64,000 nt of DNA. It comes from a virus. Of this stretch, positions 32,428 to 63,347 are shown piece after piece (position 1 is the first letter of the stretch; each line of letters opens with the position of its first letter). The stretch spans positions 128,001 to 192,000 of IMG/VR virus record IMGVR_UViG_3300045988_175328. The stretch is one strand, 5' to 3'. A program made the translations under genes and the position numbers. The notes beneath the pieces are model-generated. The model was given only the letters and a program-made list of their open reading frames with translations. It had not been told where the DNA came from and searched no databases.

Positions 32428-32771
32428 TAATAATAGGGCGCATTAATAAAGAAATTTATTAATGAAAATGGGATAAACCTTTTTAGGGTGTCGATTTAAT
32501 TGTCGGCTAACGGTAGAAGTTAAATAAGCAAACGACGAATACGCTTCCTAAGAGATGCTACGGTCCACATTGTGGATAGCAGCCAATACCGTGCCAATCT
32601 AAAATCTTAGCCTTTAGTGATTTTAGCAGGTGTAGAGACTAACAGGTGAGTAGCTAAAACAATAAGCCTGACATGAACATCCCACATCTTAAATAGAGAT
32701 GAAGAGATAGTCCGATACTCATGAATAACAGTAATGAGAGTATGAGATAAAGAGCTCATATGTAACGAATG
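32428..32771 (+). mobile_element. group I intron 2 in dnaE (344 nt, ORF-less)
   Basis: It has the same 5' start TAATAATAGG. It shares GCTAACGGTA, AATACCGTGCCAA, an R element AGGTGTAGAGACTAACA and an S element GAAGAGATAGTCC with intron 1. It ends at G32771. Confidence 0.8.
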
Positions 32772-33566
32772 TTTAATCAGTCACATGCTGCCGCATATTC
32801 ATATAATACATTTCTTACAGCATGGTTAAAGTATTATTATCCGGCCGAATTCTTTGCGGCTCATCTTTCTATGCAAGATACAAAAGATCTTTATAAATAT
32901 TTACCGATCGTAAGGAAAGCTGGTATCGAAATAAAATGTCCAGATATTAATAAATCTGGAGAGAACTTTTTGCCACAAGGTAAAAGTATTTTATTCGGCT
33001 TAGGCAGTGTCAATACAATTGGAGGGAAGGCGTTAAATGCTATTATGACGAACCGCCCATTCTCTTCGATTGAAGATCTTGATAGTAAGGTATCTGGCCG
33101 TGAATTAAATAAAAGAAGTATTAATTATTTAATTCAGGCTGGTGCTTTTGATTTTGAAGATGCAAACCGAAAGGTAGTTGCTAATAAATTTGCTGATCTT
33201 CGTAAAGATACTAAAATATATCTTGAAGAACCTATGACCGAAAAAGAATACATGGAGATGGAAAGTAACAGTATTGGATTCCCTGTAACATATCTTCCAG
33301 AATGGTATCATCTTGAACTAGGAGACACTCCTTTCTTCAAGATAAAAGTAGCTGCTGTTAATGAACGAAATGATCGTTCTGGTAATTTAATGGCGTTTTT
33401 AGAACTTGATGTTGGAGGCGGCGTACTAATCGATGCCGTAGCATTTAGTTCTATATACACTACTAACTTAAGTTACCTTCGAAAAGATAGCGAGATATTT
33501 GTATCCGGCAAAAAAGATAGTGAATCTAAATTTGTTCTTAAAAAAATAAGTCTTACTGGTGAGTAA
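32772..33566 (+). CDS. dnaE: DnaE exon 3 (C-terminal part)
   Basis: FNQSHAAAYSYNTFLTAWLKYYYPAEFFAA matches FNKSHSAAYA...tyqtaWLKahYPaEFmAA. A terminator follows. Confidence 0.85.
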   Translation, partial: FNQSHAAAYSYNTFLTAWLKYYYPAEFFAAHLSMQDTKDLYKYLPIVRKAGIEIKCPDINKSGENFLPQGKSILFGLGSVNTIGGKALNAIMTNRPFSSIEDLDSKVSGRELNKRSINYLIQAGAFDFEDANRKVVANKFADLRKDTKIYLEEPMTEKEYMEMESNSIGFPVTYLPEWYHLELGDTPFFKIKVAAVNERNDRSGNLMAFLELDVGGGVLIDAVAFSSIYTTNLSYLRKDSEIFVSGKKDSESKFVLKKISLTGE

Positions 33567-48885: not shown

Positions 48886-49145
48886 TGAAAAATCTTTTTA
48901 AAATGATGCTCTATGAAAACGATCAGTTAAGCTACACACGAATCATTTCGTTCACTTTACTTTTACTGCTTGTATTCGTAACACTTTATCTTGTAATTTC
49001 TGATACGGCTTGGCAGCATTATGAGACACTTGCCGGCATTGCTGGCGGCGGATCAACAGCTACACAAGTCGCGAATAAATTAATTAACAGTAAATACAAT
49101 TCGGCAGTTGGATCTTACGAACAAAAAAGCGATCGAGAAATATGA
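48885..49145 (+). CDS. small single-pass membrane protein (holin-like, speculative)
   Basis: 86 aa with one TM segment IISFTLLLLLVFVTLYLVI. It is translationally coupled on both sides and lies two genes upstream of an amidase. Confidence 0.3.
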   Translation: MKNLFKMMLYENDQLSYTRIISFTLLLLLVFVTLYLVISDTAWQHYETLAGIAGGGSTATQVANKLINSKYNSAVGSYEQKSDREI

Positions 49146-50350
49146 GAAAAATAAAAGCACCAAAATTAAAAATTAATGTGCTTTCCTCTGAAGACTTTAA
49201 GAGAGCGTCGACAAACGCTCTCTTTAAAGATAGCGAAGTATATATCCTCTCGAAGGACTCCATACTGGATCTTTACCGAGATTTAACTTCGCTCTCTCAA
49301 GGAAAGCAAACTAAATTACATCCGAAAAATACTTCGATTCTTTTATCGCCGAACGGCGAGATCGAAGCTAATATAGATTTATCTCCGTACTACACACGAT
49401 CCGAAGCGTTAAAACAATTCGTATCACGTAGCGAACAGCCCGATAATAGCTACTATTCTAATTTAGTACGGGATTTCTTTAAAGCCGATAAGATTAAAGG
49501 CGCCGGTCTTATTAATGTGACTCGGAATGAAGATGTTTACACCGTATCGTCTTCAATGCCGTTCTCGTTTGATAATAACCGCATCCATATTGGCGACGGT
49601 ACTGGCGGTAATGCCGGTACAACAATTGGCCATAACTCTTCGGCACAGCATTCTAATTCTGTAGCTCTTGGCTCCGATTCGGTTGCTACGCTTCCGAATG
49701 AAGTATCGGTTGGCAACTCTCAAACTAAACGTAAAATTACGAATGTCGATAAAGGTGTTGAACCAACTGATGTCGTAACGGTAGCTCAATTACAAGAAGC
49801 AATTAATACTGTTAAAAATAATCTTACGAATATTGCTTCTCAGCTTTATCCGATCGGGGCTGTTTACATTACAGTACTTACTCATAACCCGACCGATCTT
49901 TTCGGTGGTCAGTGGGTTAAGCTTCCGGCCGGCAAAATGCTTATTAATGAAGGCGACGGATTTAATCTTAATGAAATCGGCGGCGAGAAAGAGCATGTAT
50001 TAACTGAAGCCGAGATGCCAGGGCATGCACATGTATTAGATGGCAAAGGAAGAATTCAAACAAATACTGTTGAACTAAAGGGGAATATCTCTTATTCTCA
50101 ATCTGGTGACAATGGAGGTGGCTTAGCTAAATATAGATCATCTAATGGTATTGTTAAAGTTGAATCTTATTACGGAGAACAGACAAGAAAAGGTGATAGT
50201 GGAGATTCTGCTATTAATCTTAATATTGATGCTTCTCACTCTCATATATTAGATTTGTCTTCTCTATCAATGCAACGAGCCGGCTCCTCTGTGGCTCATA
50301 ACAATATGCCACCATATCTTGTCGTTAATATGTGGAAACGTGTCGGTTAA
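49142..50350 (+). CDS. tail fibre with a C-terminal phage tail-collar / MdpB-like domain
   Basis: YPIGAVYITVLTHNPTDLFGGQWVKLPAGKMLI...GGEKEHVLTEAEMPGHAHV...SHSHIL...HNNMPPYLVVNMWKRVG fits the collar-domain pattern (PiG.i.......P.gW..c.G ... lt..qmP.H.H ... hnN.qPyl.l...i). Confidence 0.65.
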   Translation: MRKIKAPKLKINVLSSEDFKRASTNALFKDSEVYILSKDSILDLYRDLTSLSQGKQTKLHPKNTSILLSPNGEIEANIDLSPYYTRSEALKQFVSRSEQPDNSYYSNLVRDFFKADKIKGAGLINVTRNEDVYTVSSSMPFSFDNNRIHIGDGTGGNAGTTIGHNSSAQHSNSVALGSDSVATLPNEVSVGNSQTKRKITNVDKGVEPTDVVTVAQLQEAINTVKNNLTNIASQLYPIGAVYITVLTHNPTDLFGGQWVKLPAGKMLINEGDGFNLNEIGGEKEHVLTEAEMPGHAHVLDGKGRIQTNTVELKGNISYSQSGDNGGGLAKYRSSNGIVKVESYYGEQTRKGDSGDSAINLNIDASHSHILDLSSLSMQRAGSSVAHNNMPPYLVVNMWKRVG

Positions 50351-50367
50351 TACGAAAGGATTTCTTA

Positions 50368-50925
50368 ATGCAATTAACTAAAGATCAATTACTTAATACA
50401 TGCGAAGAACAAGGCTATAATAATACAAAGATTACTCTTCATTGGTCAGCCGGCCATTATGATCAGTTATTCGATGACTATCATCTTTGTATCGATGGTA
50501 ATGGTAACTTCCATCAGATGAAAGATTTTAGTGAAGTCGGCGCCCATTGCTATCGTGAGAATACGAATAACTTCGGCATCTCGGTATGCTCGAACTACAA
50601 TTCCGGCCTCTACGAAAACTCTCCGGGATATTTTACGTACGAACCAGGACCAGAACCTGTTAATTATAATCAACTCGAATCGCTTGCACATGCTGTAGCC
50701 GTATGCTGCGTTACTTGGGGATTACCGTTATCGCAAGTATTTACTCACGGCGAACGTTGTTTAATTCGTCAAGACCTCTACGACTACGAAACAGAACGTT
50801 GGGATCTCGATATCCTCGTTCCAGAATGTCACGTACGCAAGACATCGCCAACGACAACATCTGGTGGCGACTGGATTCGTAACCGAGCACGAGAACTTGC
50901 TAAGAGCTGGGGGACGGAGCTCTAA
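50368..50925 (+). CDS. N-acetylmuramoyl-L-alanine amidase (Amidase_2 / T7-lysozyme-like)
   Basis: AAAGGA SD before ATG 50368. ITLHWSAG, DYHLCIDGNGNFHQ, VGAHCYRENTNNFGISVC and VFTHGE parallel T7 lysozyme IFVHCSAT, GYHFIIKRDGTVE, GSHAKGYNHNSIGVC and AHHE. Confidence 0.75.
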   Translation: MQLTKDQLLNTCEEQGYNNTKITLHWSAGHYDQLFDDYHLCIDGNGNFHQMKDFSEVGAHCYRENTNNFGISVCSNYNSGLYENSPGYFTYEPGPEPVNYNQLESLAHAVAVCCVTWGLPLSQVFTHGERCLIRQDLYDYETERWDLDILVPECHVRKTSPTTTSGGDWIRNRARELAKSWGTEL

Positions 50926-51890
50926 TGGCTCTTAACGATTACGAGTTCTCGGTACGAGAAACCGAGCCAAAACGTGCCGAGATGCTCAATCGTCTTAAAA
51001 ACGAAATCGGAGAATTAACAAAAGATACAATTATTAATACTAATGAAGATACTCCCGATACTCAGTTTAATGACGATAAGGCATTATCGGCGGCGCTGGC
51101 CTTCTCGAAATTCCCGACAAAAGAAAAATTAAACAATGAATACTATAATAAGCCGGCGGTCGATAATTTAATTAATCAGATCCTTGCAAATAAACTCCCA
51201 GAATTAAAGGCTCTTTTTATGGAGGAGCTAAATAAGCATCGACATGCCGACCCGATCGATCATCCCGATATCCCGGGATCGAAGATCATCGATCATTCGA
51301 TCACGCGTGATAAGCTTGCATTCCAAATCTCGTTCGAGAATTCATGGCCTATCGGATCGATCTATATGACGACGGTCGATACTAACCCAGCAACTCTCTT
51401 CGGATTCGGTACGTGGACGAAAATCCCAGCCGGCAAAGTTCTCCTTTCCGAAGGTAATGATATGGGTACGATTTACACTAACGGTGAAACCGGCGGATCT
51501 AAAGAGATCTCGATCGACAAATCTTTCGTTCCGTATCACACGCACACAATGCAAGATGGAAGTGGAGCTCATACGCACACCGGTAAGGTATCGAATAACG
51601 GCGATCATTTCCACGGATTCCAAGGCGAACATTGGGAATCATATGCGCGTTTTGGAACATATGATAATAGTGAACGTGGCTATGGGTCTGCCGGAGGTAT
51701 TGATAACGACAATCTTGTCTACAAAACAACAACAGATGGCGCCCATACTCATACCCTTCAAATCGACCCGTCGACAGGATCTCATATCCACACAATTAAT
51801 CCGGCCGGAACTCAAACACAAGACGTAGTCGAAAAACACTCAATAATACAACCATATATCGTTTGCTATATGTGGAAACGCACTGCATAG
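50925..51890 (+). CDS. tail fibre tip with a tail-collar-like domain and multiple HxH motifs
   Basis: WPIGSIYMTTVDTNPATLFGFGTWTKIPAGKVLL, then PYHTHTMQDGSGAHTHTG..GDHFHGF...GAHTHTLQIDPSTGSHIHTI...IIQPYIVCYMWKRTA. Confidence 0.65.
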   Translation: MALNDYEFSVRETEPKRAEMLNRLKNEIGELTKDTIINTNEDTPDTQFNDDKALSAALAFSKFPTKEKLNNEYYNKPAVDNLINQILANKLPELKALFMEELNKHRHADPIDHPDIPGSKIIDHSITRDKLAFQISFENSWPIGSIYMTTVDTNPATLFGFGTWTKIPAGKVLLSEGNDMGTIYTNGETGGSKEISIDKSFVPYHTHTMQDGSGAHTHTGKVSNNGDHFHGFQGEHWESYARFGTYDNSERGYGSAGGIDNDNLVYKTTTDGAHTHTLQIDPSTGSHIHTINPAGTQTQDVVEKHSIIQPYIVCYMWKRTA

Positions 51891-51901
51891 TATATCTTAA
51901 T

Positions 51902-51945
51902 CCTCCCTTACTTCTTAACTGGAGTAAGGGAGGTATTTTTTTTAT
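51902..51945 (+). terminator. rho-independent terminator closing the fibre/lysis module
   Basis: CCTCCCTTACT (51902-51912) / AGTAAGGGAGG (51923-51933), then TATTTTTTTT. Confidence 0.85.
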
Positions 51946-52201
51946 TAGTGTTAGGTGGGGTCTAGTGACGGTTCTTTTAATAAGGAAAGAAAATGAGTAT
52001 AAATATATATAAGATGGAGAGTACAGGCTGGCCGACATTTATGTCGATCAGTTAAGTGGAAGTGTAGTTAGAATGGGGGTTGTTGGGTCTTAAAATGGAA
52101 ATAATAAAATAAAGAGAAAAATAGCAAAACATATTCTGACTGAAATTTAGGAATAGTAATAAGAGTAATTTGTTTTGGTCGAAGTATTGTTTGCGAGACG
52201 G

Positions 52202-52403
52202 AAATAAATAAATGAATTTTGATGACATAGGTCGAGTTAGCTGTGTAGGTCGATAGACGTGTTTTATACGTAAGCCAGATTTTGTGAAAAATTTAAAAAT
52301 AAATAAGAAAATAAATAAATGCTGATTTGTTGTGGTAGGTCAAGTTAGATGCGTAGGTTGACAGGCGTGTTCTGTAAGTGAACTAGAATTTTGTAGAGAA
52401 TTT
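52202..52403. repeat. two imperfect direct repeats of ~95 bp with a 107-bp period, each holding two TAGGTYRA boxes
   Basis: Both copies start AAATAAATAAATG (52202, 52309) and continue ...TTTG.TG...TAGGTC.AGTTAG.TG.GTAGGT.GA.AG.CGTGTT...GA.TTTTGT....AATTT, about 75% identical by eye. They lie in a 700-bp C-poor non-coding region. Confidence 0.75.
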
Positions 52404-52594
52404 GGAGGGGGAAGTGTTTTATGAAGATATTAGAGTGCTGAGAAATCATGCCCCCGGGTGCTTGATTCTCGGAACTCTCACTACTTTTGCGCCATATAGT
52501 AGCCAGGCGCATTTCTAAATGTGGTTACGACGAGCCTTTCTGACTGGAGCTCGTTTCAATCCAGTCGAATTTGTTCAGAAAAGGAGAAATTATC

Positions 52595-55500
52595 ATGAAC
52601 AAACAAAACATTCAAAACAACAAAAATTTAAAAGCTGTCGTATTGGCAGCAGTAGATGCAGCAGTAGCTGCTGATGTGCGCGTGGTTAATACCACTGCGG
52701 CGGTAACAACCGCAGAAGCAGTAGTTACTGAAACTGCAGAAACACTTGCGCGCGCAGCGGTACAGTTTCAAACATTTATCAACAATTTTGTAGTAGAAGG
52801 AGGCGAGTATCGTAGCTTCATGGGCATTCTATCTGATGTAGGATTTACACATCCAGATCTTGTTAAATGGGTGCGTAAACAAAAATGGACAGAAGCAATG
52901 TCTATTTGGAGAGAGGGTCAAGGATACACACGTAATTCTTTCCTTTGTGATGAAGACTGGAATACATTCCTCGAATTACGGGAAGCCCTCCTTCAAGCGC
53001 GCAATGCGTACAAAAACGCAAAACGTAAATTAGCTAGAAAAGAAGTCGCATTAAAAGCAGCAAAAAAAGAGGCAGCAAAAGCCTTATTAGCAGAGAAATC
53101 TGCAAACAAACAATGGAAAAAGGCGAGAAAGGATGCGAAAGAAGCAAGAGCTACTGAAGCAGCAGTAGCAGTCGAAGAGGCTCGATTAGAAAAAGCACGA
53201 AAACGTGCTGAAAAAGTGGGTCCGAAGGAACCGCCAAAACAAAGAGTGGCCGTAGCTGTTGCTGGTCTTGAGTCCATGTTAGAATGGATCGAATCTAGAA
53301 AGGTAGCTGTTACTAAAACAGTTGTATTAGAAAATACAGCTAAATTAGTAACAGAAGCTAACGCAGCTGTTGAGTACGGTTATATGGATGCTAGAACTGG
53401 AGAATTTGTTTCTACAGAAGGAACAAAAGAGTTCTCTGGTGCTAGATTCAAAACTGGTGCTATCAACATTGCCGATAAAAATACTGCTAAAGCAACAGCA
53501 AAAGCCAACGCTACTGCTAATGGTAAAGATTTAGATGGAGACGTCATAAATCGCTTCGTTAAACCTAGAAATATCCTTGATGGATTCAAACTTAAATTGC
53601 AAATGTTTGGATCTAAAGTACGTGTGCGTAACGTACTTAAAGGTAATCGTAAAGGTTTTAAAGCTGTAATGGGACCAAAAGCACAAGTTGCTATTAAGTC
53701 CATTATCGTTGACGGTAGCGACGTAATGGCTAATGGTGAAGGTGTAAAAGCTATGGCAGTAGCAACTACATCCTCCATTAGCTATATTGTACGTACAGCA
53801 ATTCGTCTTGGCGAAGAAAAAGGATGGGCTGAAGAGCTTGTTCTTAGAAATTCTTCTATTAAGACTGGCTATATGGATGGCAACATCGGTATCAACTCTC
53901 ATAGAGAGATGACATCGATGGAAGCCGATTTAACATATATGACTGCAGAAGTATCTGCTAATTATGTGTTGAATGGCTTAATCTCCATTCATATCGATAA
54001 AGAGGATGAGGAAGGCGTATCCTTCACAAAGGGCATTCGTCAAGCAGAATTCATTATCGTTGATGGAATTAAATACATTCCGTTAATGGTTGAGTCTGTT
54101 GCGAAGACTCGTCTATACGATACAGTATGGACAGCTGAGCATCTGGCTAACCAATGGCGCGAAGTGCTTCGTGTAGCGACAGGAGGAATCTCTGACAGTA
54201 TTACTCTAATGAAAGAGTTAACTAAAGCTCTTAAATTGAGAAGCCGTTTGGGAATGGGGTTCTCTCCTAGCTATGAGTTCGAAATCGATCTTGCACGTTG
54301 GGGCGTTGTGTATCTTGACGCTTCTATCGATGCAATCGACGGACAAGCTTACGGAAGCAGAGCTATGATGGAAGAGCTTCTTGAACTAGCTGGCGTGAAC
54401 TCATGGCAAGTTCGCACGAATACAGGTAAAGGACAACTCGTTCCAATGAAAAGAATGAAACGTCTACTTGCTGTATTGTGCGAACAATACGGTCTTGAAC
54501 TCGTTTACGTTTCTGACGTTGACGAAGTTCAAGCAGCTATTGATGCAGCAAGAGCTGAAGGTAAAAGAGTAGCCGTTGTTGTTGGTAACGCCGAACATAT
54601 TGGCATGATCGGCGATATGAATTTCTTTAAAGGAATTCCGACTATCAATGATGGTGGCATTGTTCGTCTAAGCGTCTTGAGAAATCTTGCACCAACAGGC
54701 AACGGCTCTCACTTCGCTTACCAGGCAGCAGTGGGTGCTTTATGCTCTTACGAATGGGATAATAAAGACCGTTTCGTAAAAGCATTGGCTATGCAAGCCG
54801 TTGAAAAATTCACAGAAGCTTTCAATGGCTGTGCTGTTAATAAATCTGTAACTGATTTGTTTGCAGCATTAGTTGGAGTAAAAGGATTGGCTGGCGAAGC
54901 TGATATCATCAGCGAATTAGCCAACGGTGCATTTACTCCAGCTATGTATGGCATTAAAGAGCTTTCCTATGCGTTAAGAAACGAGCAACAAGTTGTTCGT
55001 GGTAGTGCATGGAAAGTTTCTTGCCCAGGCATGAAGGACGAGCTATTTAACGAAGCTATTCTTGAAGGAGCTGGCCTACTTGTTGTAGAAGGAATTGTTT
55101 CTAATAACAATCCTTTACTAAAACAAGGCGATTGGGTGATGGCATTGAGATACCCACATTCCAATGGGTTCTCTTTCGTTAAAATCAGACTTGTAACAGT
55201 ATCTGAAGCTATCGAAAGAGTGAACAACTCTTCCGCGTTTGCGGCTCAAAAAGCTGTCATGATCGATGAGCTATTATCCCTTGGTGATAATAACATCATG
55301 GTAGACAGCAGCCGTGAGGTATTGGAAGCATTAGCTGGTATGGATTTTGATGGAGACGTGATCTCTGTCTTAAATCCAGAAGAAGCAGAGTTGCTTTTGC
55401 CAATGGATGAGCTACGTACAGTCATTGCTCCGATCGTAACGAAAGCTCAAGAAAAAGAGCTTGTTGTTACAGGAAACTTTGAAGATACAATGCAACATCT

Positions 55501-57397
55501 TCAAAGCGAGATGGCAGCTAATGAAACTAAGTACGTTGGCGAAATCTCCAATGGAGTAATGAAAGCAACTGAGTTCTTGGGTCTTCCTAAAGATGAACAA
55601 AGAAAAATTGTGGCAGAAATTGTCCGCAATGGAAATCTAAGCCACAATGGCTTATTGCCTACGTTCAACTGGGAGGAACAAGTAACTTGGGTTGAAGGAA
55701 AAGAAGGATTCGTACTTAGCGATGAGTCTACAACTCCTCAAGCTTTAGTTGCTATGAAAAATGCGTTCTTCGATAAAGTTGATGAACGAAACTACTCTGT
55801 AGAAAGTTTCATCAACTTCGCAGAATACGTTGTCATCATGTCTGGTCCAACGCAAGGATTCGTAATTGATGCGGCGAAAAAATTCTGTCCAATCGTAGAC
55901 TTAGCAGAAGATATCTTCTCCAACTTAAGTCTTGGATGGAAAAGATTCGCTCCAACAATGGTGCTTACATGCAATGAGTATGGAGAGTTCTCCAAAGGTA
56001 TGTCTTATAACTTTGGCGAAGAGAACTCTAGCATTACTCTTACAGTAGGCGCATGTATTCAGGTAGAAGCTTTCAAAGCGTTTGCGGTGGAAGCTTCTAA
56101 AGCTATCTTAAATGCATTTGCTGGAGAGGATGCATCTAAAGCTAACTGGAAAGCATTTGAAGACGCATTGAAAAAAGAGTCTTTAATGTCTTTGGTTGGT
56201 GGTAAGATGAACTCTGCTAGAAAGAACTGCAGAAACATTGCTGCTGGAGCTGCAGCTGCGATTAAAGTTATCGACAACCAAATCGCAGAAGCTTGCGGCG
56301 AAGAAAACATTCCTAGTAAAACAATGAAGGAATGGAGCGACGCTATCGGCTGCATGTTTGCTGCATCTGGTACAATCAATCCTCTTGGATTACGTGCTTA
56401 TGCATCCAGCAAAACATTACGTCCAGCAATCTTGAAAGCAATGCTTGACGCTGCTGAAGTAAAATCCATTCCTGTAGAAATTGGATTTACTTCTATGGCA
56501 AGAGTTGCTTTTGCGAAAGCGAATGTTGGAGAAAAAGTATTCTTCGAAAACTCTAAAGCTGCTGATGCTAACGGAGTAATTCTTCTACACTCTGGTTTAA
56601 CAGGTTACTACAAAGTATCTGTTAAAACAGAAGAAGTAGAAGAAAACGGAGAAACAATCTCTGTAGAGACATACTTCGTAGAAGTGCCTGTGTCCGAAGT
56701 ATTAGGCATCGAACCGATGAAAACAAATCGTTTCGTTGCTCACTTAGGATACGAAGGTGCCGATGCTGAAGTCGCTAGAAAGTTTAATGCTGAATTAACT
56801 AAGTTCGACTTCTGCGCGGAAGGTACGTTCGCTTTCTATGGCACGATGAAAGAACTAAACAATCTTATGATTGAAAAGTTTGGCGAAGGTGTCTTAAGAG
56901 ACGTATTGGTATCAACAATAACTGGGCTAAAAAACGGTGAAGACGTTTATAGCCAACAGTTTGTTGATTTCATCGCTCTTGCTAATGGTCACGCTACTGA
57001 TCCGAAGTATGCAGCTGATGACAAACATGACCGCGTATTCTTTGTTCGCAAAGATGAGAATGGTCGGGTTGTGGTTATGAGATCATTGCCTAACCAAGCA
57101 ATGGCTTATGGCCATGAAGCGTTTAAGCTAAGAGGCATGTTCGCTGGAGAACTAAGATTAGTTAGTTACATCTTAGAAGGAAAAGCTAAGTCTGACAAAA
57201 AGGGCTATGTTAATAGCTACTTATTGTTAGAGCACAAAACTTTAGCTCCTAAGCAAGAAATCAGTGCGTATATCAATGGTTTAATTACTAAATATGCGGC
57301 TGATTTCAAAGCAGCTGTCTTAAATAAAAAGTTCGAATTAGGTTGCCTTGGTAGCCTAGTTCAAACTGTATTATCTGATGAAGAAATCATTGGATAA
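52595..57397 (+). CDS. giant two-barrel polymerase candidate (YonO / RdRP-like single-chain RNA polymerase)
   Basis: AAAGGAGA SD 8 nt before ATG 52595; the track's TTG at 52571 is rejected. SWQVRTNTGKGQLVPM lies at 54401-54448 (cf. FQIR.GG.KG). GDWVMALRYPHSNGFSFVKIRLV lies at 55127-55195 (cf. NRAPTLHR / RNPCLHPGD). AGMDFDGDVISVLNP lies at 55334-55378 (DxDGD catalytic loop). The gene has its own terminator. Confidence 0.6.
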   Translation: MNKQNIQNNKNLKAVVLAAVDAAVAADVRVVNTTAAVTTAEAVVTETAETLARAAVQFQTFINNFVVEGGEYRSFMGILSDVGFTHPDLVKWVRKQKWTEAMSIWREGQGYTRNSFLCDEDWNTFLELREALLQARNAYKNAKRKLARKEVALKAAKKEAAKALLAEKSANKQWKKARKDAKEARATEAAVAVEEARLEKARKRAEKVGPKEPPKQRVAVAVAGLESMLEWIESRKVAVTKTVVLENTAKLVTEANAAVEYGYMDARTGEFVSTEGTKEFSGARFKTGAINIADKNTAKATAKANATANGKDLDGDVINRFVKPRNILDGFKLKLQMFGSKVRVRNVLKGNRKGFKAVMGPKAQVAIKSIIVDGSDVMANGEGVKAMAVATTSSISYIVRTAIRLGEEKGWAEELVLRNSSIKTGYMDGNIGINSHREMTSMEADLTYMTAEVSANYVLNGLISIHIDKEDEEGVSFTKGIRQAEFIIVDGIKYIPLMVESVAKTRLYDTVWTAEHLANQWREVLRVATGGISDSITLMKELTKALKLRSRLGMGFSPSYEFEIDLARWGVVYLDASIDAIDGQAYGSRAMMEELLELAGVNSWQVRTNTGKGQLVPMKRMKRLLAVLCEQYGLELVYVSDVDEVQAAIDAARAEGKRVAVVVGNAEHIGMIGDMNFFKGIPTINDGGIVRLSVLRNLAPTGNGSHFAYQAAVGALCSYEWDNKDRFVKALAMQAVEKFTEAFNGCAVNKSVTDLFAALVGVKGLAGEADIISELANGAFTPAMYGIKELSYALRNEQQVVRGSAWKVSCPGMKDELFNEAILEGAGLLVVEGIVSNNNPLLKQGDWVMALRYPHSNGFSFVKIRLVTVSEAIERVNNSSAFAAQKAVMIDELLSLGDNNIMVDSSREVLEALAGMDFDGDVISVLNPEEAELLLPMDELRTVIAPIVTKAQEKELVVTGNFEDTMQHLQSEMAANETKYVGEISNGVMKATEFLGLPKDEQRKIVAEIVRNGNLSHNGLLPTFNWEEQVTWVEGKEGFVLSDESTTPQALVAMKNAFFDKVDERNYSVESFINFAEYVVIMSGPTQGFVIDAAKKFCPIVDLAEDIFSNLSLGWKRFAPTMVLTCNEYGEFSKGMSYNFGEENSSITLTVGACIQVEAFKAFAVEASKAILNAFAGEDASKANWKAFEDALKKESLMSLVGGKMNSARKNCRNIAAGAAAAIKVIDNQIAEACGEENIPSKTMKEWSDAIGCMFAASGTINPLGLRAYASSKTLRPAILKAMLDAAEVKSIPVEIGFTSMARVAFAKANVGEKVFFENSKAADANGVILLHSGLTGYYKVSVKTEEVEENGETISVETYFVEVPVSEVLGIEPMKTNRFVAHLGYEGADAEVARKFNAELTKFDFCAEGTFAFYGTMKELNNLMIEKFGEGVLRDVLVSTITGLKNGEDVYSQQFVDFIALANGHATDPKYAADDKHDRVFFVRKDENGRVVVMRSLPNQAMAYGHEAFKLRGMFAGELRLVSYILEGKAKSDKKGYVNSYLLLEHKTLAPKQEISAYINGLITKYAADFKAAVLNKKFELGCLGSLVQTVLSDEEIIG

Positions 57398-57408
57398 CAA
57401 ATAATAAT

Positions 57409-57448
57409 AAAGAGAGACCTCTATATGGGGTCTCCTCTTTTTTTTTAT
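57409..57448 (+). terminator. rho-independent terminator after the polymerase-like gene
   Basis: GAGACC (57414-57419) / GGTCTC (57429-57434), extendable with a bulge, followed by a 10-nt T run. Confidence 0.8.
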
Positions 57449-58004
57449 TTTCTGGGATCCCCTCCGGGATCAGGATTCCTCCGCTACGGCTCAGCCTGCG
57501 CTCCGGAATAGGCCAGCCTATGGCTGTCCGTTAGGAGCGTTATCATTAGGTAGAGGTATAACGATAGAGGAAATAAAAATCCTCATTTATGAGGGTTTAT
57601 CCTTAGTAAGGAGGAAGATAGAAAGTAAAAATGTTTTTCTTCTTAAGGGGCAAGCCCCTTAACAACCCCGCCACCCCTGCGGGATGGACCGAACTGGCGG
57701 TGGATGAGGTCGTCCGAAACGACGTCAAACTAAAGGAAAAATCCTCACTTGTGAGGAAACTTGCTCCTGAGTACGAGCTAAAACTGCTTGCGAGGAAAAA
57801 TCCTCGTTGTTGAGAGCACTTGCTCTTCGAAGGCCCTGGCGGTGTCGGAGAGAGGAGTAGGTGCTGTGGTCCTGAATAAGACATTAAACTGTTTCAGAGG
57901 AGAAAATCCTCTGTTGTGAGAGAGCTCATTTAACTCTCTGTTTTAATTAAGCCAGTGTAGAAATATTTGCTGGTGTTTTCGGGCGCATGCCCAAGGAGGT
58001 TATC

Positions 58005-58469
58005 ATGTTAACTTTAGAATTAAATCGAAAAATGGCCTATGGTTTTTTCCCAGAATTAATTCGCGATGAAGAGAAAATTGCGAATTTGAATGACTTATTT
58101 CAAGAAGTTATTATGAAAAATAATCCTAACGGAGTTAAGCTCCAATTGGATTTTAAGCACAATGTAATTGTGCATAAAACCAATGTAGGCGAAGTAACTC
58201 TAGTAGAAGAGTACTTCCCTAATGGTACTGAAAAACTTTGGGTAAATCGTTTCCGTAACAGGAAACAACTATTACCTAAAGTTCCTGCAGAATTAATTCC
58301 TGTCGCAAAAGAATGCGACGAAAGAAATTTATACAAATTTAATTATTTAAGAGAAGGAAACATTACGTTTTATCTCGCAAATAATAGAAAGGTTCTCGTA
58401 AGAGAAACTAAAATGGAGGATGGAAGTCTTTCAATCGATTTATTCTACCTAGCTGATTTGTTGGCCTAA
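58005..58469 (+). CDS. hypothetical early-type protein
   Basis: AAGGAGG lies 6 nt before ATG 58005. The track's ATG at 57987 lies inside the leader hairpin. Confidence 0.6.
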   Translation: MLTLELNRKMAYGFFPELIRDEEKIANLNDLFQEVIMKNNPNGVKLQLDFKHNVIVHKTNVGEVTLVEEYFPNGTEKLWVNRFRNRKQLLPKVPAELIPVAKECDERNLYKFNYLREGNITFYLANNRKVLVRETKMEDGSLSIDLFYLADLLA

Positions 58470-58640
58470 GTAGAATAATCTCCTAAGCATGAGAATAAAC
58501 TGCTTATTTGTAACGGCTCCTGAATATGAGCATTAAACTGTTCTAGAAGAAAATCCTCTATTATGAGTTTTGTCCGTAATGACGATAAACTAATTATTAT
58601 AATTTAATTTGGCGGCAAATCGCCAGAAAGGAGGCATATT

Positions 58641-58796
58641 ATGTCTCAATTAGAATTAACAAACCACTTAGCGTGGGTAGAAGAAATGGTTGCATTCGCG
58701 GAGACTGAAGAGTCCAACTACCGTGACTTCGAAGGATATCTTGCGGAGTCATTTATCGGAGGCCTGGACCTCTGGCTAGGAGACGATGAATTTTAG
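58641..58796 (+). CDS. small acidic protein (51 aa), absent from the ORF track
   Basis: The full cassette lies upstream (TAAACT, AT tract, GGCGGCAAATCGCC, AGGAGG, 7 nt, ATG). It encodes MSQLELTNHLAWVEEMVAFAETEESNYRDFEGYLAESFIGGLDLWLGDDEF. Confidence 0.6.
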   Translation: MSQLELTNHLAWVEEMVAFAETEESNYRDFEGYLAESFIGGLDLWLGDDEF

Positions 58797-58934
58797 ACTC
58801 TAGTTTCCTGACCAAGACCTAGGTATGTCTTTAAACTGCCTAAATCCTCCCCATTGCGGGGACTGAATTGTCTGAGATGACGTTAAACTATTTAATTTAA
58901 TTCATGGCGGCAAATCGCCAGAAAGGAGATAAGT

Positions 58935-59225
58935 ATGCATACTTATACTCTTGAAAACACTGAGGCACTAGTTGCCTTAGTGCGTGACCTTTGTTTTAGC
59001 AATGGTCATTGTCCCAAAGAAATCTTCTCTTGGGATGAAAAACATTACATTGTAGCCGGCAACCTAGCTAGTTACGATGGACCATGGGACGGTCCTGAAG
59101 ATGTCGCTCATATCTACGTTGATGGTGTAGGCGTGGGAGAAATAGATATCTTCGGCGCCGACCAAATTGCATTCGCCGTTGCTAACTGGAACGGCGAAGA
59201 ATTGAACAGAAAGGTGGTGGCTTAA
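58935..59225 (+). CDS. hypothetical small protein (B-module-like N-terminus)
   Basis: Cassette plus AAGGAGA SD. TLENTEALVALVRDLCFSNG resembles the xLxxLVEYIxKxxG helix of the 61817/62582/63071 family. Confidence 0.6.
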   Translation: MHTYTLENTEALVALVRDLCFSNGHCPKEIFSWDEKHYIVAGNLASYDGPWDGPEDVAHIYVDGVGVGEIDIFGADQIAFAVANWNGEELNRKVVA

Positions 59226-59255
59226 CTGCTTTTCTGTAATCTCGTCGACCACTCG

Positions 59256-59639
59256 GTGGATGTTTACGATTTAGTAGGAAATCTAATCGTGAGCATCCCT
59301 AAGAGTGGTCGTGTAGCTCGTGTTCGGACAAGTAGCGAAAGAGTGGGCGCTATTTGTTCTAAGGATTTTAGCTATCGAAAATACAATGAAGACGGTAGCT
59401 ATGAAGATACACCACTTAAAGGGAACCCACAATCTGGGCACCTGAATATATTCAAATCTGAGTATTCAGATGTCGAAGGGTTCCCTGAAACTATAGAACA
59501 GGGTGTGTATTATATTGTCAGTTCTATGGTGGCGTCTCGTATACAGAGTCATCAGGTTATTGCGCCTGGTCAGATTATGCGGGACGCCTCCGGCAAAGCC
59601 GTAGGATGCTGCGGTCTTAGTTATACTGCCGGAAGATAA
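59256..59639 (+). CDS. hypothetical protein (GTG start, uncertain)
   Basis: 127-aa ORF with no clear SD. It follows 58935..59225 by 30 nt. Confidence 0.45.
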   Translation: MDVYDLVGNLIVSIPKSGRVARVRTSSERVGAICSKDFSYRKYNEDGSYEDTPLKGNPQSGHLNIFKSEYSDVEGFPETIEQGVYYIVSSMVASRIQSHQVIAPGQIMRDASGKAVGCCGLSYTAGR

Positions 59640-59682
59640 ATTAATTAATTTAAATAGGGCCCGGATGCTCGAGGAGGTAATG

Positions 59683-59856
59683 ATGAAGAATATAATTATC
59701 GTATGCATGCTATCACTAATCTGCACTATAGCAATAGTGGAATTTTCAGTAGGCTTGTTCCCAGCATTAGCTGGGTATCCAGAAGCATTGGCTACAGCAG
59801 GAGCTATTTCTGTTGCAACTATTTCCTTCATGTTGTTTGACATGATAGGAGACTGA
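59683..59856 (+). CDS. small hydrophobic membrane peptide (57 aa)
   Basis: GAGGAGG at 59671-59677; the start is ATG 59680 or 59683. It has two hydrophobic segments and is a paralog of 59952..60122. Confidence 0.55.
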   Translation: MKNIIIVCMLSLICTIAIVEFSVGLFPALAGYPEALATAGAISVATISFMLFDMIGD

Positions 59857-59951
59857 AAAATCCTCGTTTATGAGGAGAAGTCCGTAATGACTGTAAACTA
59901 TTCTAATATATTTAATTAATTAAAGGGCGCAAATGCCCGGAGGAGGTTTCT

Positions 59952-60122
59952 ATGAGAGACGAAATCATTTTATTAATTTCCAGCATTGCAGTAGGAGTGG
60001 GAATTTCTACTCTTATTAATGAGGTTTTCCCTATATTAGTGGATTATCCATTAGTAATGTCTATCTTCGGAGGAATCATCTCAGGAGCGATATATTATTT
60101 TATTCACTTGTTATCATACTAG
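59952..60122 (+). CDS. small hydrophobic membrane peptide (56 aa), absent from the ORF track
   Basis: The full cassette lies upstream with GGAGGAGG SD. It encodes MRDEIILLISSIAVGVGISTLINEVFPILVDYPLVMSIFGGIISGAIYYFIHLLSY. Confidence 0.6.
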   Translation: MRDEIILLISSIAVGVGISTLINEVFPILVDYPLVMSIFGGIISGAIYYFIHLLSY

Positions 60123-60295
60123 TAGAATAAAATCCTCAGACCTCAGCAAGTCTTTAAACTACTCTTTCCTGACAGTTCCTAAGTATGAACATAAAACTGC
60201 TTATCTTTTAAAAATCCTCGCTTGTGAGGTGCTTGCGTAGAAATAGCAAGCTATATTATTTTAATTAGGCCTTAGGCCAGAAATGGAGTTTTATC

Positions 60296-60766
60296 ATGAA
60301 AACACAAAAATCTACAGAACGCAAATTAGTTAATTTTTCTAGCTACTTTAAACAAAAAGACGACAAAGTCTTTGGTGCTGCTGTATTGCACTGCGGCAAG
60401 GAAGTGCAAGTTGCTGCTTACAATGGCGGCAAAGCCCTTCATTCTATTGAAGGAGCTGTGTGTGCAGCAGCATGCGCAGCTACAGTAAATATGAAGAAGG
60501 GAGACCTCTTCACCATGATTGTTGACTTGAAGACATTACGCCAATTATGGTCTGCTATTAAAACTGGCAATGTAACTGATGACTTCGCAGGCAATGAGGC
60601 GGAACGCAATGCCGTTATCAAAATGGCCGAACGCGTTCCAGCCCTTCGGGCTCGCGGCATTATTGTGAACATTCGTGCTCATAAAGATGTCTATGCAAGT
60701 GGAGGATACTTAGCAGGGCAACTCCCAATTTGGAGCCGTATGGCTACCAAAGCTATGAACATCTAA
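60296..60766 (+). CDS. hypothetical protein
   Basis: Leader hairpin plus TGGAG SD. 156-aa ORF, Ala/Cys-rich in the centre (GAVCAAACAATV). Confidence 0.6.
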   Translation: MKTQKSTERKLVNFSSYFKQKDDKVFGAAVLHCGKEVQVAAYNGGKALHSIEGAVCAAACAATVNMKKGDLFTMIVDLKTLRQLWSAIKTGNVTDDFAGNEAERNAVIKMAERVPALRARGIIVNIRAHKDVYASGGYLAGQLPIWSRMATKAMNI

Positions 60767-60851
60767 ATCCTCTGACCTGAGCATGTCGGTAAACTGCTCA
60801 ATTATTTAATTTAATTTAATTAAGGGCGGCAAATCGCCCGAGGAGGTTTAT

Positions 60852-61337
60852 ATGCAAACTTTGAAAATTAACAATCCTACAAGAAACTTAATTGAGATGA
60901 CTTTAGAGGTCACAAAATTAAACGGCACTATTGAACAAGACGGCAATGCTGTTATCATTAATTTGCCAGAAGAACAGGTGTCTGCCTTTGTAGAATGGTA
61001 CGGTGGTACTGGACTTAAGGAGACTGCCCTTGCCATCGCAAAGAAAGCAGGAGCATTAACTGCCAAAGCAGGAGACCTTACGAAAGTAGGGACTGTTGCT
61101 TTAGGAAAATTATCTTTCAAGACAGCCTTCGGTATGACTCGCAGAGCCATTGAGGCGACCGCGGGGATCACAGCTGCGGCCGTTAATGGCGCCAAAGAAG
61201 CTTATAGCGAAATGGTAAGTTCTGACGAGTTCAGAGCTGTTAAAGAATCTTTTAGTTCTGGACGCGGCAACGGCATTGAATTTGTCGAAATGACACCGGT
61301 TGTTCAAGCTGAAGTAGCAGAAGTTGTAGAAGGATAG
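60852..61337 (+). CDS. hypothetical protein
   Basis: Full cassette plus GAGGAGG SD. 161-aa ORF. Confidence 0.6.
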   Translation: MQTLKINNPTRNLIEMTLEVTKLNGTIEQDGNAVIINLPEEQVSAFVEWYGGTGLKETALAIAKKAGALTAKAGDLTKVGTVALGKLSFKTAFGMTRRAIEATAGITAAAVNGAKEAYSEMVSSDEFRAVKESFSSGRGNGIEFVEMTPVVQAEVAEVVEG

Positions 61338-61409
61338 AAATCCTCAGACCTGAGCAAGTCGTTAAACTGCTTAATTTAAATTGAATTATATTTTATGGAG
61401 GGAACTGTC

Positions 61410-61523
61410 ATGAATAAAGAAGTTAAACAAATTATTGCATCTATCGGAGTATTAGGATTGTGTTACGCAGTCGGATACGCTATTGGCTATTTCGGATTTA
61501 ATCTTGTTAAGAAAATTAAATAA
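61410..61523 (+). CDS. small membrane peptide (37 aa), absent from the ORF track
   Basis: TGGAGGG SD 8 nt upstream. It encodes MNKEVKQIIASIGVLGLCYAVGYAIGYFGFNLVKKIK, one TM segment with basic ends. Confidence 0.5.
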   Translation: MNKEVKQIIASIGVLGLCYAVGYAIGYFGFNLVKKIK

Positions 61524-61533
61524 AGGAGGCTAC

Positions 61534-61794
61534 ATGACTATTTCTGAACTTGAGGGCGCCATTAAAATGATGTTCATCATTTACGGCGAGCCGACCGCAA
61601 CGAATATTGGCTACGGTGTTTTCAGAGTCACCGCTAGTGATGCTGAAATCCTTATTGAGAGGATTGATACTACTGGTGGATCTAGTATTAAACTGACTGG
61701 TCCGTCTGGTTCTATTGAAAAAGACGAGCCGTCTTTAGAATTTAGATTGTTGGTTGACCGTCTAGAGCGAGTTGTAGACGGTTATAATTATTAG
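61534..61794 (+). CDS. A-module-only member of a small-protein family
   Basis: AAAGGAGG lies 5 nt before ATG 61534; the track start at 61483 would overlap the 37-aa peptide gene. It resembles the N-terminal halves of 61817 and 62582. Confidence 0.6.
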   Translation: MTISELEGAIKMMFIIYGEPTATNIGYGVFRVTASDAEILIERIDTTGGSSIKLTGPSGSIEKDEPSLEFRLLVDRLERVVDGYNY

Positions 61795-61816
61795 TTTATC
61801 TGTAAGGAGAAACATT

Positions 61817-62302
61817 ATGGAATTACAAGTAATTAAAGGTATGGTTATTGCGGCAAAATTAGCAAACAAATTTATGGGCGGCGCCTTGGAAAACAATCGT
61901 GCCGAGCTCCAAATCGGTGACGTGAATTTAGTTATTTACAGCGCTGGCGGAAACGAGGTAGTAATTGCTCCAACTTCTATGGAGATGTGGTATGACCCAA
62001 TCCATGTTGAAGGAACTTTGGAAACTGTCTTCGATACCATCGGAGAGATGCTAAAAGAAGCTGTCGAAGATGACGAAGACTCTCCATATCGTTACGAGTT
62101 TCCTAACTTAGAGCGCCTTGTCGAGTATATCGAGAAAGAAACAGGTGTCGTAGCTAACGAACATCCTAAATGCTATACTAAAGAATGGGACGGTATTATG
62201 GAATTCGACGAGTTCAAAATCGTTTTCTTTGGGCCATACCATGGTACTGTATATGTGCCGGAAGATTACAAACTTAACTTTGTGTTGAAAGAGTTACCAT
62301 AA
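61817..62302 (+). CDS. A+B two-module family protein
   Basis: Clearly and extensively similar to 62582..63061 along its whole length, e.g. SPYRYEFPNLERLVEYIEKETGVVANEHPK...FKIVFFGPYHGTVYVPEDYKLNFVLKELP. Confidence 0.7.
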   Translation: MELQVIKGMVIAAKLANKFMGGALENNRAELQIGDVNLVIYSAGGNEVVIAPTSMEMWYDPIHVEGTLETVFDTIGEMLKEAVEDDEDSPYRYEFPNLERLVEYIEKETGVVANEHPKCYTKEWDGIMEFDEFKIVFFGPYHGTVYVPEDYKLNFVLKELP

Positions 62303-62313
62303 GGAGAAATATT

Positions 62314-62568
62314 ATGGAATTAATTAAAGGATTATTCATTGGCGCCGCCTTACTAGGCAAACCAGTTCTCGTTAAGAAAGAACGGAAGGGCGTATACAAT
62401 TTTATTATCGGGCCGATCACAGTTTTTATCTATGATTGGGATGACAGTCGCACTATCGTCGGTATTGATGGACCAGAAGGTTCATACGAATCTTACAAAA
62501 TCGACGGGGATGTGAGAACAGTATTACACTACCTTGTAGATGTCAACAATAATATCGAGATTAAATAG
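62314..62568 (+). CDS. A-module-only family member
   Basis: MELIKGLFIGAALLGKP... parallels MELQVIKGMVIAAKLANK... and MKIIEGLIMAARLANK... Confidence 0.6.
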   Translation: MELIKGLFIGAALLGKPVLVKKERKGVYNFIIGPITVFIYDWDDSRTIVGIDGPEGSYESYKIDGDVRTVLHYLVDVNNNIEIK

Positions 62569-62581
62569 GAGTATTATTGCT

Positions 62582-63061
62582 ATGAAAATTATTGAAGGTT
62601 TAATTATGGCTGCAAGATTAGCAAATAAAGATATAACATATCGACTAGAAATTAATTATGCCGAATTTAAGATTGGAGATATTACTTTAGATATCTACAT
62701 AAAAGATAAAAATATAGTTATGATTACTCCGACTTGTGAGAACATGTGGGGACAGCCACTCTATATCGAAGGAACAGTCGGGTCTGTTTTCTCTGATATC
62801 TTAGACATGGTAAACGAATCAGATGTCGATTCTGAGAATTCTCCGTATCGTCAGCGCTTTTCAAATTTAAAATCTTTGGTTGAGTACATCGTAAAAGAAA
62901 CGGGAGCTATTGCAGGAGAACATCCCAAACGTTATATCGAAGAGTGCGCTGACGTTATCGAATTCATTGAATTTAAAGTTGTATTATTCGGGCCATATCA
63001 TGGAACAGTGTATGCTCCCGAAGATTACCAACTGAACTTTGTTTTAGACGAATTACCGTAA
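62582..63061 (+). CDS. A+B two-module family protein (paralog of 61817..62302)
   Basis: TAGGAG SD before ATG 62582; the track start at 62540 overlaps the upstream gene. SPYRQRFSNLKSLVEYIVKETGAIAGEHPK...FKVVLFGPYHGTVYAPEDYQLNFVLDELP. Confidence 0.7.
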   Translation: MKIIEGLIMAARLANKDITYRLEINYAEFKIGDITLDIYIKDKNIVMITPTCENMWGQPLYIEGTVGSVFSDILDMVNESDVDSENSPYRQRFSNLKSLVEYIVKETGAIAGEHPKRYIEECADVIEFIEFKVVLFGPYHGTVYAPEDYQLNFVLDELP

Positions 63062-63070
63062 GGAGAATTT

Positions 63071-63295
63071 ATGATGGTATTATATTTCGATACAGTTGAG
63101 GAGCTTATCGAATATTTTAAAAAGAAATCTGGATTCGAGCCGGGGCCTGTGAAAATTATTCGTTATTCTGATGGCGCATTCGATATTGTATATGGAGATA
63201 TCGAGCTAGAATTCGAGAATAAGATTAAAGGTTCCGTCTTGTTCTGTGGCGACTTTATGGTTCGCTTCGAACTTGGCACTCCCGTCGTAATCTAA
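63071..63295 (+). CDS. B-module-only family member
   Basis: FDTVEELIEYFKKKSGFEPGP...IELEFENKIKGSVLF parallels the C-terminal halves of 61817 and 62582. Confidence 0.6.
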   Translation: MMVLYFDTVEELIEYFKKKSGFEPGPVKIIRYSDGAFDIVYGDIELEFENKIKGSVLFCGDFMVRFELGTPVVI

Positions 63296-63347
63296 AAAAT
63301 CCTCGTTGGCGAGGTCGTATTTAAAATTTAATTAAGGAGGAATTATT

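Follow-up and report, generated by a model that had tools for sequence, protein, structure and literature searches.

We analysed a stretch of 64,000 nucleotides from an uncultured virus (IMG/VR record IMGVR_UViG_3300045988_175328, positions 128,001 to 192,000; the whole stretch is referred to here as the window), centring on a gene at 52595-57397. From its sequence and predicted structure, the product of this gene is a very divergent single-chain two-barrel RNA polymerase (RNAP) of the YonO/RdRP-like branch (RdRP, RNA-dependent RNA polymerase), in which it forms a separate deep subfamily. No relatives of the cellular transcription enzyme are simpler than the single-chain two-barrel RNAPs, from which the RNA interference (RNAi) polymerases of eukaryotes have been proposed to derive. 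To our knowledge a handful have been studied: YonO, crAss-like phage gp66, gp64 and gp96 of P23-45, and QDE-1.

The virus is a phage of about 225 kb and all the long open reading frames (ORFs) of the window lie on one strand. Besides the polymerase gene, the window encodes tail-fibre-like proteins, a DnaB-like helicase, RecJ and an intein-containing DnaE. Identical copies of the polymerase are found on contigs of up to 227 kb, and in public records the protein is annotated as 'hypothetical'.

The features of the locus are collected in Table 1. The ORF of 1600 residues proposed in an initial annotation of the sequence is real. It starts at ATG 52595 on the + strand, with a GGAG Shine-Dalgarno sequence upstream, and stops at 57395-57397; the start aligns with those of the relatives. 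An in-frame TTG at 52571 would lengthen the mechanical ORF to 1608 residues. The ATG is preferred because both the ribosome-binding site (RBS) and the MNK start are conserved: AAAAGGAGAAATTATC precedes ATG 52595, and the aligned relatives begin ATGAA(C/G)AA(A/G).

Table 1. Coordinates of the polymerase gene, its modules and motifs, and its flanking signals in the window
Feature	Position	Strand	Basis
Intrinsic-terminator-like hairpin and T-run, closing the tail-fibre/amidase genes	51902..51943	+	13-bp stem with 7 GC pairs, then TATTTTTTTT; conserved in sister phages
Non-coding leader, about 660 nt	51944..52594	+	Repeat; hairpin-rich last ~180 nt
Coding sequence of the predicted 1600-residue single-chain two-barrel polymerase, stop included	52595..57397	+	Motifs, AF2 model, Foldseek, hhalign, YonO HMM
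Optional N-terminal module, residues 1-340: Ala/Val-rich segment, ~90-residue globular part, Lys/Ala/Glu-rich predicted helix, variable linker	52595..53614	+	Absent in some alleles; conservation
Predicted catalytic core, residues 490-1190: both double-psi beta-barrels and the following helices	54062..56164	+	AF2 pLDDT 89.8, pTM 0.88; Foldseek
QVRTNTGKGQ, residues 605-614: strand-turn-strand of the first (beta-like) barrel, with basic R607 and K612	54407..54436	+	Family-invariant; Q.R....K in 30/32 distant sequences
RYPHSNGFSF, residues 852-861: (R/K)(Y/N)P strand of the second (beta-prime-like) barrel	55148..55177	+	P854 in 32/32 distant sequences; aligns with YonO-family R(S)PH
DFDGD, residues 917-921: putative Mg2+-binding aspartate triad	55343..55357	+	D917/D919/D921 in 32/32 distant sequences
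MSGPTQGFVIDAAKK, residues 1082-1096: conserved IDxxK helix motif	55838..55882	+	Family-invariant; IDxxK in distant relatives; IDxAK of YonO family
C-terminal extension, residues 1191-1600, least conserved	56165..57394	+	23-31% identity between clades
Intrinsic-terminator-like hairpin and T-run, 17 nt past the stop	57414..57446	+	GAGACCTCTATATGGGGTCTC then CTCTTTTTTT; conserved in four clades

Catalytic motifs, predicted fold and relatives

The assignment to the two-barrel polymerases of the YonO and eukaryotic RdRP type, made in the initial annotation from three motifs, is supported by the conservation of those motifs, by structure prediction and by profile comparison. The motifs lie exactly where they had been placed, namely SWQVRTNTGKGQLVPM (residues 603-618; 54401-54448), GDWVMALRYPHSNGFSFVKIRLV (residues 845-867; 55127-55195) and AGMDFDGDVISVLNP (residues 914-928; 55334-55378), and K612 and D917 are 305 residues apart as claimed. 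Q605, R607, K612, G613, R852-Y-P-H855, G915, D917, D919 and D921 are invariant in eight relatives, these being clusters with cores down to 35% identity, and given this divergence the motifs go beyond what would be expected by chance. Only the middle glycine of DFDGD varies among them (DFDID in P0008). In 32 far more distant sequences P854, G915 and the three aspartates are still invariant, and Q605, R607 and K612 are nearly so (at least 90% of the sequences), as is K679 in GDMNFFK.

The first motif aligns with AVQGRFGSAKGM of QDE-1 and with VRxxxxKG of the YonO family. R607 and K612 match the arginine and lysine of QGRFGSAKG in QDE-1 and their YonO counterparts, such that the beta-like barrel would contribute two basic residues as elsewhere in the superfamily. 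DFDGD aligns with GGDYDGD of QDE-1 and with DNDGD or DFDGD of the YonO family, and corresponds to the DxDxD loop of the superfamily. A DLDGD at residues 313-317 (53531-53545), in the variable linker, was set aside as a chance motif; relatives read DLDQ or SLDK at this point.

The initial annotation recognised no motif after the metal loop, but the approximately 680 residues there do contain conserved YVGE (980-983), ERNY (1064-1067) and MSGPxQGxxIDxxKK (1082-1096). The first of these pairs with IGEYSN of the YonO family and the last with IDxAK. IDxxK itself (residues 1091-1095) falls in a helical part of the predicted structure (model residues 594-607) and is a candidate for the equivalent of the bridge helix, the resemblance being to the ...DTALKTA... 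of beta-prime.

Structures were predicted with AlphaFold2 (AF2). A model of residues 341-1540 from a six-sequence alignment was unusable, with a predicted local distance difference test score (pLDDT) of 38. With a 31-sequence alignment residues 490-1190 were modelled confidently, as judged by the pLDDT and the predicted template-modelling score (pTM; Table 1), and no segment fell below a pLDDT of 50. In this model QVRTNTGKGQ forms strands at model residues 115-118 and 123-129 and DFDGD lies in a loop between the strands at 411-414 and 433-437; both fit the active site of a double-psi beta-barrel (DPBB) enzyme. Two DPBB domains are predicted, the beta-like preceding the beta-prime-like, as in the rest of the superfamily. 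A structural comparison with QDE-1 and the phage polymerases, proposed as a check on the assignment, gave matches to both. Using Foldseek against the PDB, the best match was QDE-1 (E 6.7e-9, probability 1.00, 731 columns, query-normalised TM-score 0.44, 12% identity), and maize RDR2 (E 6e-7), phage P32 gp64 (E 8.8e-4) and P23-45 gp96 (E 1.9e-3) were also found, along with a weak tail of beta-prime and Rpb1 chains. In BFVD the best matches were proteins from uncultured phages labelled 'RNA dependent RNA polymerase' (E 7.5e-11) and fragments of crAss-like virion RNAPs (vRNAPs) down to E 1.3e-4.

For the comparison with YonO, a family alignment was made from SPBc2 YonO and three relatives from Enterocloster, Thomasclavelia and Bacillus phages. 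At 839 residues SPBc2 YonO is about half the length of the window protein, in line with the twofold difference given in the initial annotation. Aligned to this family with hhalign, our extended family alignment gave 98.8% probability (E 5.3e-17) over 466 columns, in which all three motifs were paired. The pairs run ESVAKTR/SSAGQIRT, DG, Q/V.R....KG, YQ, RYPH/R.PH, DFDGD, VGEISN/IGEYSN and IDAAKK/IDxAK. A hidden Markov model (HMM) of the YonO family matched the window protein alone (16.2 bits, E 6e-6; next 0.4) among the 46 window ORFs of at least 150 residues.

The suggested check against the RdRP family PF05183 held only in part. The window protein has no match to this family even at E<=10, and the Pfam search as a whole gave sub-threshold PFIN and Cas3_HD noise alone; three of ten bridging relatives come just below the threshold (P0010, 23.6 bits against a cutoff of 23.8). 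Nothing useful was found in PHROGs, with phmmer against the PDB or with hmmsearch of the PDB using a nine-sequence family, and tblastn against 50,697 phage records returned nothing at E 1e-5 or E 10. Close relatives form eight clusters in an index of 5.8 billion proteins. They derive from contigs of about 99-228 kb and are 1264-1790 residues long; one clade is 74-95% identical over the shared region, and in a second the cores are 35-45% identical. A broad-alignment search of the index returned the close family and nothing further, while the N-terminal module alone returned nothing as a query, probably because low-complexity words swamped the search. A narrow-alignment locus search gave four distant IMG/VR loci. 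Bridging sequences came from a profile of the family core, built from the window family alone and searched without a word filter, which found 29 proteins at E<=1e-3 (best 2.6e-10), three of them close, among 1.84 billion representative proteins. The 26 distant relatives (119-1427 residues) align over both barrel regions, with Q.R....K, (R/K)(Y/N)P and G.DFD.D in common. When the PDB was searched with the wider profile, three of the top four entries were QDE-1, with both barrels aligned, at E ~0.4. Within the window there was neither a second polymerase paralogue nor another copy of the N-terminal module, and a weak PHROG sigma-factor hint in the ORF at 25235-26242 was not confirmed by Pfam.

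Transcription unit, modules and neighbouring sequence

A repeat-bearing leader upstream and a terminator downstream had been noted for the gene and both were found. The hairpins proper span 51902-51933 and 57414-57434, and since these terminators flank them, the gene and its leader form a separate unit between the tail-fibre/amidase block and a small-gene array. The leader contains an imperfect direct repeat of about 75 nt (52220-52294 and 52328-52403), and GTAGGTYGAYAGRCGTGTT is confined to two leader sites within the window. In a minimum free energy fold, a stem ACGAGC...GCTCGT within the hairpin-rich last ~180 nt presents a loop, GACTGG, that is able to pair with CCAGTC just before the RBS. 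The last 260 nt of the leader are about 90% identical in phages with cores 35-45% identical, and the stems change in a compensatory manner (ACGAGC/GCTCGT, ACGGGT/ACCCGT and GCGCC/GGCGC). No sigma-70-like site was called on the + strand of the leader, and Rfam searches with the leader, the non-coding sequence past the gene and the motif array described below were all negative.

The N-terminal module begins, as had been seen in the translation, with an Ala/Val-rich stretch followed by one rich in Lys, Ala and Glu. It is absent in P0002-P0004 and in those proteins of the same 90% cluster that are 1264 residues long and start with MNK-TITKN.... The 1600-residue and 1264-residue alleles of this one cluster both occur on 218-228-kb contigs and are otherwise more than 90% identical. 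Where present, residues 1-232 are 59-72% identical between clades, compared with 23-45% elsewhere in the protein, and the module is thus more conserved between clades than the catalytic core. It has no Pfam match, and the C-terminal extension has no family match in Pfam or PHROGs.

By blastn, the window phage shares 75-90% identity with the carriers of P0006, P0007 and P0008 over the tail-fibre genes, the leader, the N-terminal coding sequence to about 53469 and again from 57405 on; the P0006 locus was left out of the tail-fibre comparison, its contig ending just upstream. The core (53470-57400) is too diverged for blastn, with 35-45% protein identity in these sister phages (loci L010, L015 and L016). 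This difference between flanks and core shows that the core has been swapped as a cassette between close genomes. The flanks extend over 49000-53469 and 57405-60000, placing the break points at the junction of the N-terminal module with the core and at the terminator. The P0003 phage has a similar core (77% at the nucleotide level) and a different upstream region with three small ORFs.

The private motif set that the initial annotation reported for the downstream small-gene region is present. AAATCCTC occurs there in 12 copies, restricted to the + strand and to the interval between 57.5 and 63.3 kb, and recurs at the same place in three clades; AAAATCCTC was observed 9 times against 1.1 expected. 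Many copies of AAATCCTC are followed by an element of fixed register, consisting of a 3-5-bp stem, an 8-nt loop CTRAGYAW, 2 nt, TAAACT and GCTYA. It is found in three phage clades (window 57572-63314 on the + strand; L008, 5.6-11.3 kb; L010, 6.3-12.2 kb). The CTRAGYAW loop pairs with T-GCTYA, as in an H-type pseudoknot. In a set of 19 copies taken from three phages, the cells that pair make up 80.7%, while shuffled sequences reach 67.5% (0/500) and slid controls 22-35%, and the second helix, which was not used in selecting the copies, shows GC/GU/AU and AU/GC exchanges. The tolerance of G-U pairs fits a pseudoknot in + strand RNA (or single-stranded DNA) better than it fits a duplex promoter. 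A -35/-10 promoter was considered for AAATCCTC-N17-TAAACT and set aside, as what would be the spacer forms a covarying stem-loop, G-U pairs included, with its loop paired to the sequence past TAAACT. A second class of element reads GTC-CGTRAT-GAC-NN-TAAACTAWYT. The usual order after the element is TTTAATTTAATT, a GC hairpin (GGCGGCAAATCGCC) and the RBS. Hairpins of the form AAAAATCCTC-N5-GAGG lie at 57572-57594, 57734-57756, 57793-57815, 59853-59875, 60207-60229 and 63292-63314; since an A-run precedes them on the + strand, it is on the - strand alone that they resemble intrinsic terminators, and all the genes of the region are on the + strand. Sigma-70-like sites are not enriched in the small-gene region (29 against 31.6 expected), and a tRNA search found none.

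Immediately past the polymerase terminator lies a conserved GC-rich non-coding element (57455-57550; TCCCCTCCGGGAT...CTCCGCTACGGC...), found in four clades with some compensatory changes. It could conceivably represent a small RNA (RNAalifold -16 kcal/mol, three covarying pairs). There is a parallel in SPbeta, where an unannotated non-coding RNA lies downstream of yonO. In the P0008 phage the polymerase gene is directly followed by a gene (L015 11409-13385) for a 658-residue AAA_33, PolyA_pol and HD protein, like a kinase/nucleotidyltransferase RNA-repair fusion, which has no counterpart there in the window. A YpsA-family gene (PF06908) is part of the small-gene array in the P0003 phage, and SPbeta too has a YpsA-like gene, yoqJ (L007 16729-17265 / L008 8560-9096; L014 48590-49105); such genes may be an accessory that phages with YonO-type polymerases have in common.

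Three independent contigs of 222-227 kb (L008, L010 and L011) have their ends on the upstream side of the polymerase gene, at distances of 0.9, 1.8 and 6.5 kb. That this marks the genome terminus is not established, as the contigs break at different points and others, shorter ones among them, continue through the region; the ends could reflect a terminus, a repeat or a failure of assembly within the hypervariable tail-fibre genes. The base composition of the window steps up at about 48000, from a GC content of 0.29-0.38 (mostly 0.30-0.35) to 0.37-0.42. The higher-GC part from 48 kb comprises the tail-fibre genes, the polymerase gene and the small genes, and GC skew is strongly positive from 52 kb. 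Elsewhere in the window, a DnaE-type (Pol III alpha) polymerase is encoded at 28431-31928 and 32769-33566, with an intein inside (Hint and LAGLIDADG-like, residues ~420-815).

Proposed role of the polymerase

Since the gene encodes a two-barrel polymerase, part of the phage genome is probably transcribed by an enzyme that the phage itself supplies. The best explanation of the locus, and one that we consider likely from the sequence, the model and the analogies, is that the protein is a catalytically intact single-chain two-barrel polymerase of the YonO/QDE-1 branch, which would be DNA-templated and non-virion and would transcribe phage genes. On the conservation, the profile homology and the predicted fold, one barrel provides R607 and K612 and the second the magnesium loop of D917, D919 and D921, with IDxxK carried on later helices. 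By analogy with YonO, P23-45 gp64 and crAss gp66, the activity would be DNA-templated RNA synthesis, serving one gene class without the host enzyme. The polymerase would be synthesised during infection, from a terminator-bounded unit of its own, with the long conserved structured leader controlling its dose, and would transcribe the co-oriented phage genes, starting with the small-gene array just downstream, as YonO does with the operon that follows it. The 340-residue N-terminal module would be an accessory, dispensable in natural variants, and the core a cassette exchangeable between closely related phages.

A number of observations weigh against this explanation. The narrow family (Neff 2) does not align significantly with the YonO family (hhalign 7%, E 0.005), meaning that homology depends on the intermediate sequences and the predicted structure; the extended alignment against YonO alone gave 14.8%. 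PF05183 and PHROGs do not match the protein, 6VR4 (gp66) is not among the top 50 Foldseek matches in the PDB, and gp66 has no significant alignment to the family HMMs beyond the DFDxD loop. Known two-barrel phage enzymes that are not virion-borne are much smaller (YonO, 839 residues; gp64, a solved chain of 593 residues), and the window gene comes directly after tail-fibre and amidase genes. The adjacent early-looking genes have no excess of sigma-70-like sites, which would suit an injected enzyme. Finally, the covariation with G-U pairs described above means that the downstream motif set was not accepted as promoters for the polymerase, a role that is nonetheless conceivable.

Several of these points bear on the choice between an enzyme synthesised in the cell and one brought in with the virion, and here we lean, weakly, towards the first. 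The YonO family, the nearest by sequence, is non-virion; a strong terminator and a conserved regulatory leader lie between the gene and the tail genes; and natural alleles exist without the N-terminal module, which would be the obvious candidate for packaging and ejection. In Enterocloster and Thomasclavelia phages, relatives of YonO are also found within the first 2-3 kb of the records, like early genes. The alternative, a possible one that we nevertheless rate as less probable, is an RNAP made late with the tail proteins, packaged, ejected with the DNA and transcribing the adjacent small early genes ahead of all phage protein synthesis, like gp66, the N4 vRNAP or P23-45 gp96. It would account for the large size throughout the relatives, including the 410-residue C-terminal extension, for a position that in all the loci examined is after a Gp10_C tail-fibre/amidase/Gp10_C block and for the host-type promoters not being enriched next door. 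It would also be consistent with the crAss-like vRNAP fragments among the BFVD matches and with the behaviour of gp66, which prefers single-stranded templates and has no detectable promoter motif.

We regard it as doubtful that the enzyme (possibly injected) and the structured elements form one system in which transcription starts on single-stranded, structure-bearing nucleic acid and not on duplex promoters. Equally tentatively, the candidate starts would be the hairpin/pseudoknot-TAAACT elements, as extruded + strand DNA or as RNA. If true, this would be a two-barrel counterpart of the N4 hairpin-promoter mechanism, or else a phage-encoded RNA-templated activity. A related and equally doubtful reading is that the lineage, with QDE-1 as its best structural match, lies closer to the eukaryotic RNAi polymerases than any solved phage enzyme.

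It would seem improbable that the enzyme is mainly RNA-templated, with the activity of QDE-1 and RDR enzymes, and makes antisense or double-stranded RNA from phage or host transcripts, such as those with the pseudoknot-like elements, for regulation or counter-defence. The best structural matches are indeed RNAi polymerases, QDE-1 and RDR2; QDE-1 is described in PMC9508822 as having both DNA-dependent and RNA-dependent RNA polymerase activity; many structured elements nearby resemble + strand RNA; and the nearby hairpin/T-run elements read as terminators on the antisense strand only. However, the characterised phage members of the superfamily are all DNA-dependent transcriptases, QDE-1-type enzymes transcribe single-stranded DNA more robustly than RNA, and the sequence does not discriminate between template types.

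Least probable is a core that has lost catalysis to become a structural or ejection protein, or a triad of motifs that is coincidental: no curated family recognises the protein and residues 1-490 and 1190-1600 have no assignable fold, but the catalytic residues are invariant in clades down to 35% identity and in distant relatives, the confident predicted fold matches active polymerases end to end, and the non-conserved DLDGD of the linker illustrates what a chance motif looks like.

As a probable YonO-type transcriptase the protein adds a further deep lineage, from uncultured phages of about 220-228 kb, that Pfam and PHROGs miss. The locus also offers natural experiments, with near-identical alleles that have or lack the N-terminal module, and with sister phages that have received another core, 35-45% identical, but keep the same leader, terminator and intergenic signals. 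Such contrasts could show what sets promoter choice and regulation in YonO-type enzymes, YonO itself included.

Comparison with known two-barrel polymerases

The P23-45 enzymes are phage transcriptases. Gp64 (non-virion) and gp96 (virion) of Thermus phages P23-45 and P32 are two-barrel RNAPs of phages, as the window protein is predicted to be, but match it far more weakly than QDE-1; in gp96 the polymerase is fused to the tape-measure protein. The crAss-like phi14:2 gp66 (PDB 6VR4), also a phage transcriptase, is a giant single-chain two-barrel enzyme with a DFDxD loop, and its gene adjoins tail genes. It differs in its length of 2180 residues and in being proven to be virion-borne, its packaging having been shown by tandem mass spectrometry (MS/MS) and by rifampicin-resistant early transcription. 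QDE-1 and the plant RDR2 (PF05183) share the aligned Q.R....KG and G.D.DGD motifs and a helical connector between the barrels. The identity to QDE-1 is, however, 12%, at a query-normalised TM-score of 0.44, and the window gene is that of a bacterial virus with no RNAi context.

By sequence the closest likeness is to YonO, a non-virion DNA-dependent RNAP that transcribes the late genes of SPbeta from a start site downstream of its own gene, and to the YonO-like proteins of Enterocloster, Thomasclavelia, Clostridium and Bacillus phages, which are often annotated 'RNA-dependent RNA polymerase'. As in these, a single chain is predicted to carry the beta-like barrel first, and the order of the motifs is the same (SxxxQ/K.R, DG, Q/V.R....KG, YQ, R.PH, DFDGD, GE.SN, IDxxK). 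Like yonO, the gene is borne by a phage with a low-GC genome that uses Shine-Dalgarno sequences and has co-oriented genes downstream. The YonO-type proteins are more compact, at 831-924 residues, and have no counterpart of residues 1-490 and 1191-1600. Relative to YonO, the window protein has the optional 340-residue N-terminal module, about 150 more residues before the core and the 410-residue C-terminal extension. It is not detectable by BLAST and does not have the Cys-rich C-terminal tail of YonO. YonO-type genes are followed by an HU-like gene, whereas none lies beside the window gene among the ORFs scanned. As single-chain two-barrel RNAPs are already known from phages, including YonO-like ones in jumbo phages, the protein is not a new kind of enzyme; what sets it apart is its architecture and its modular evolution.

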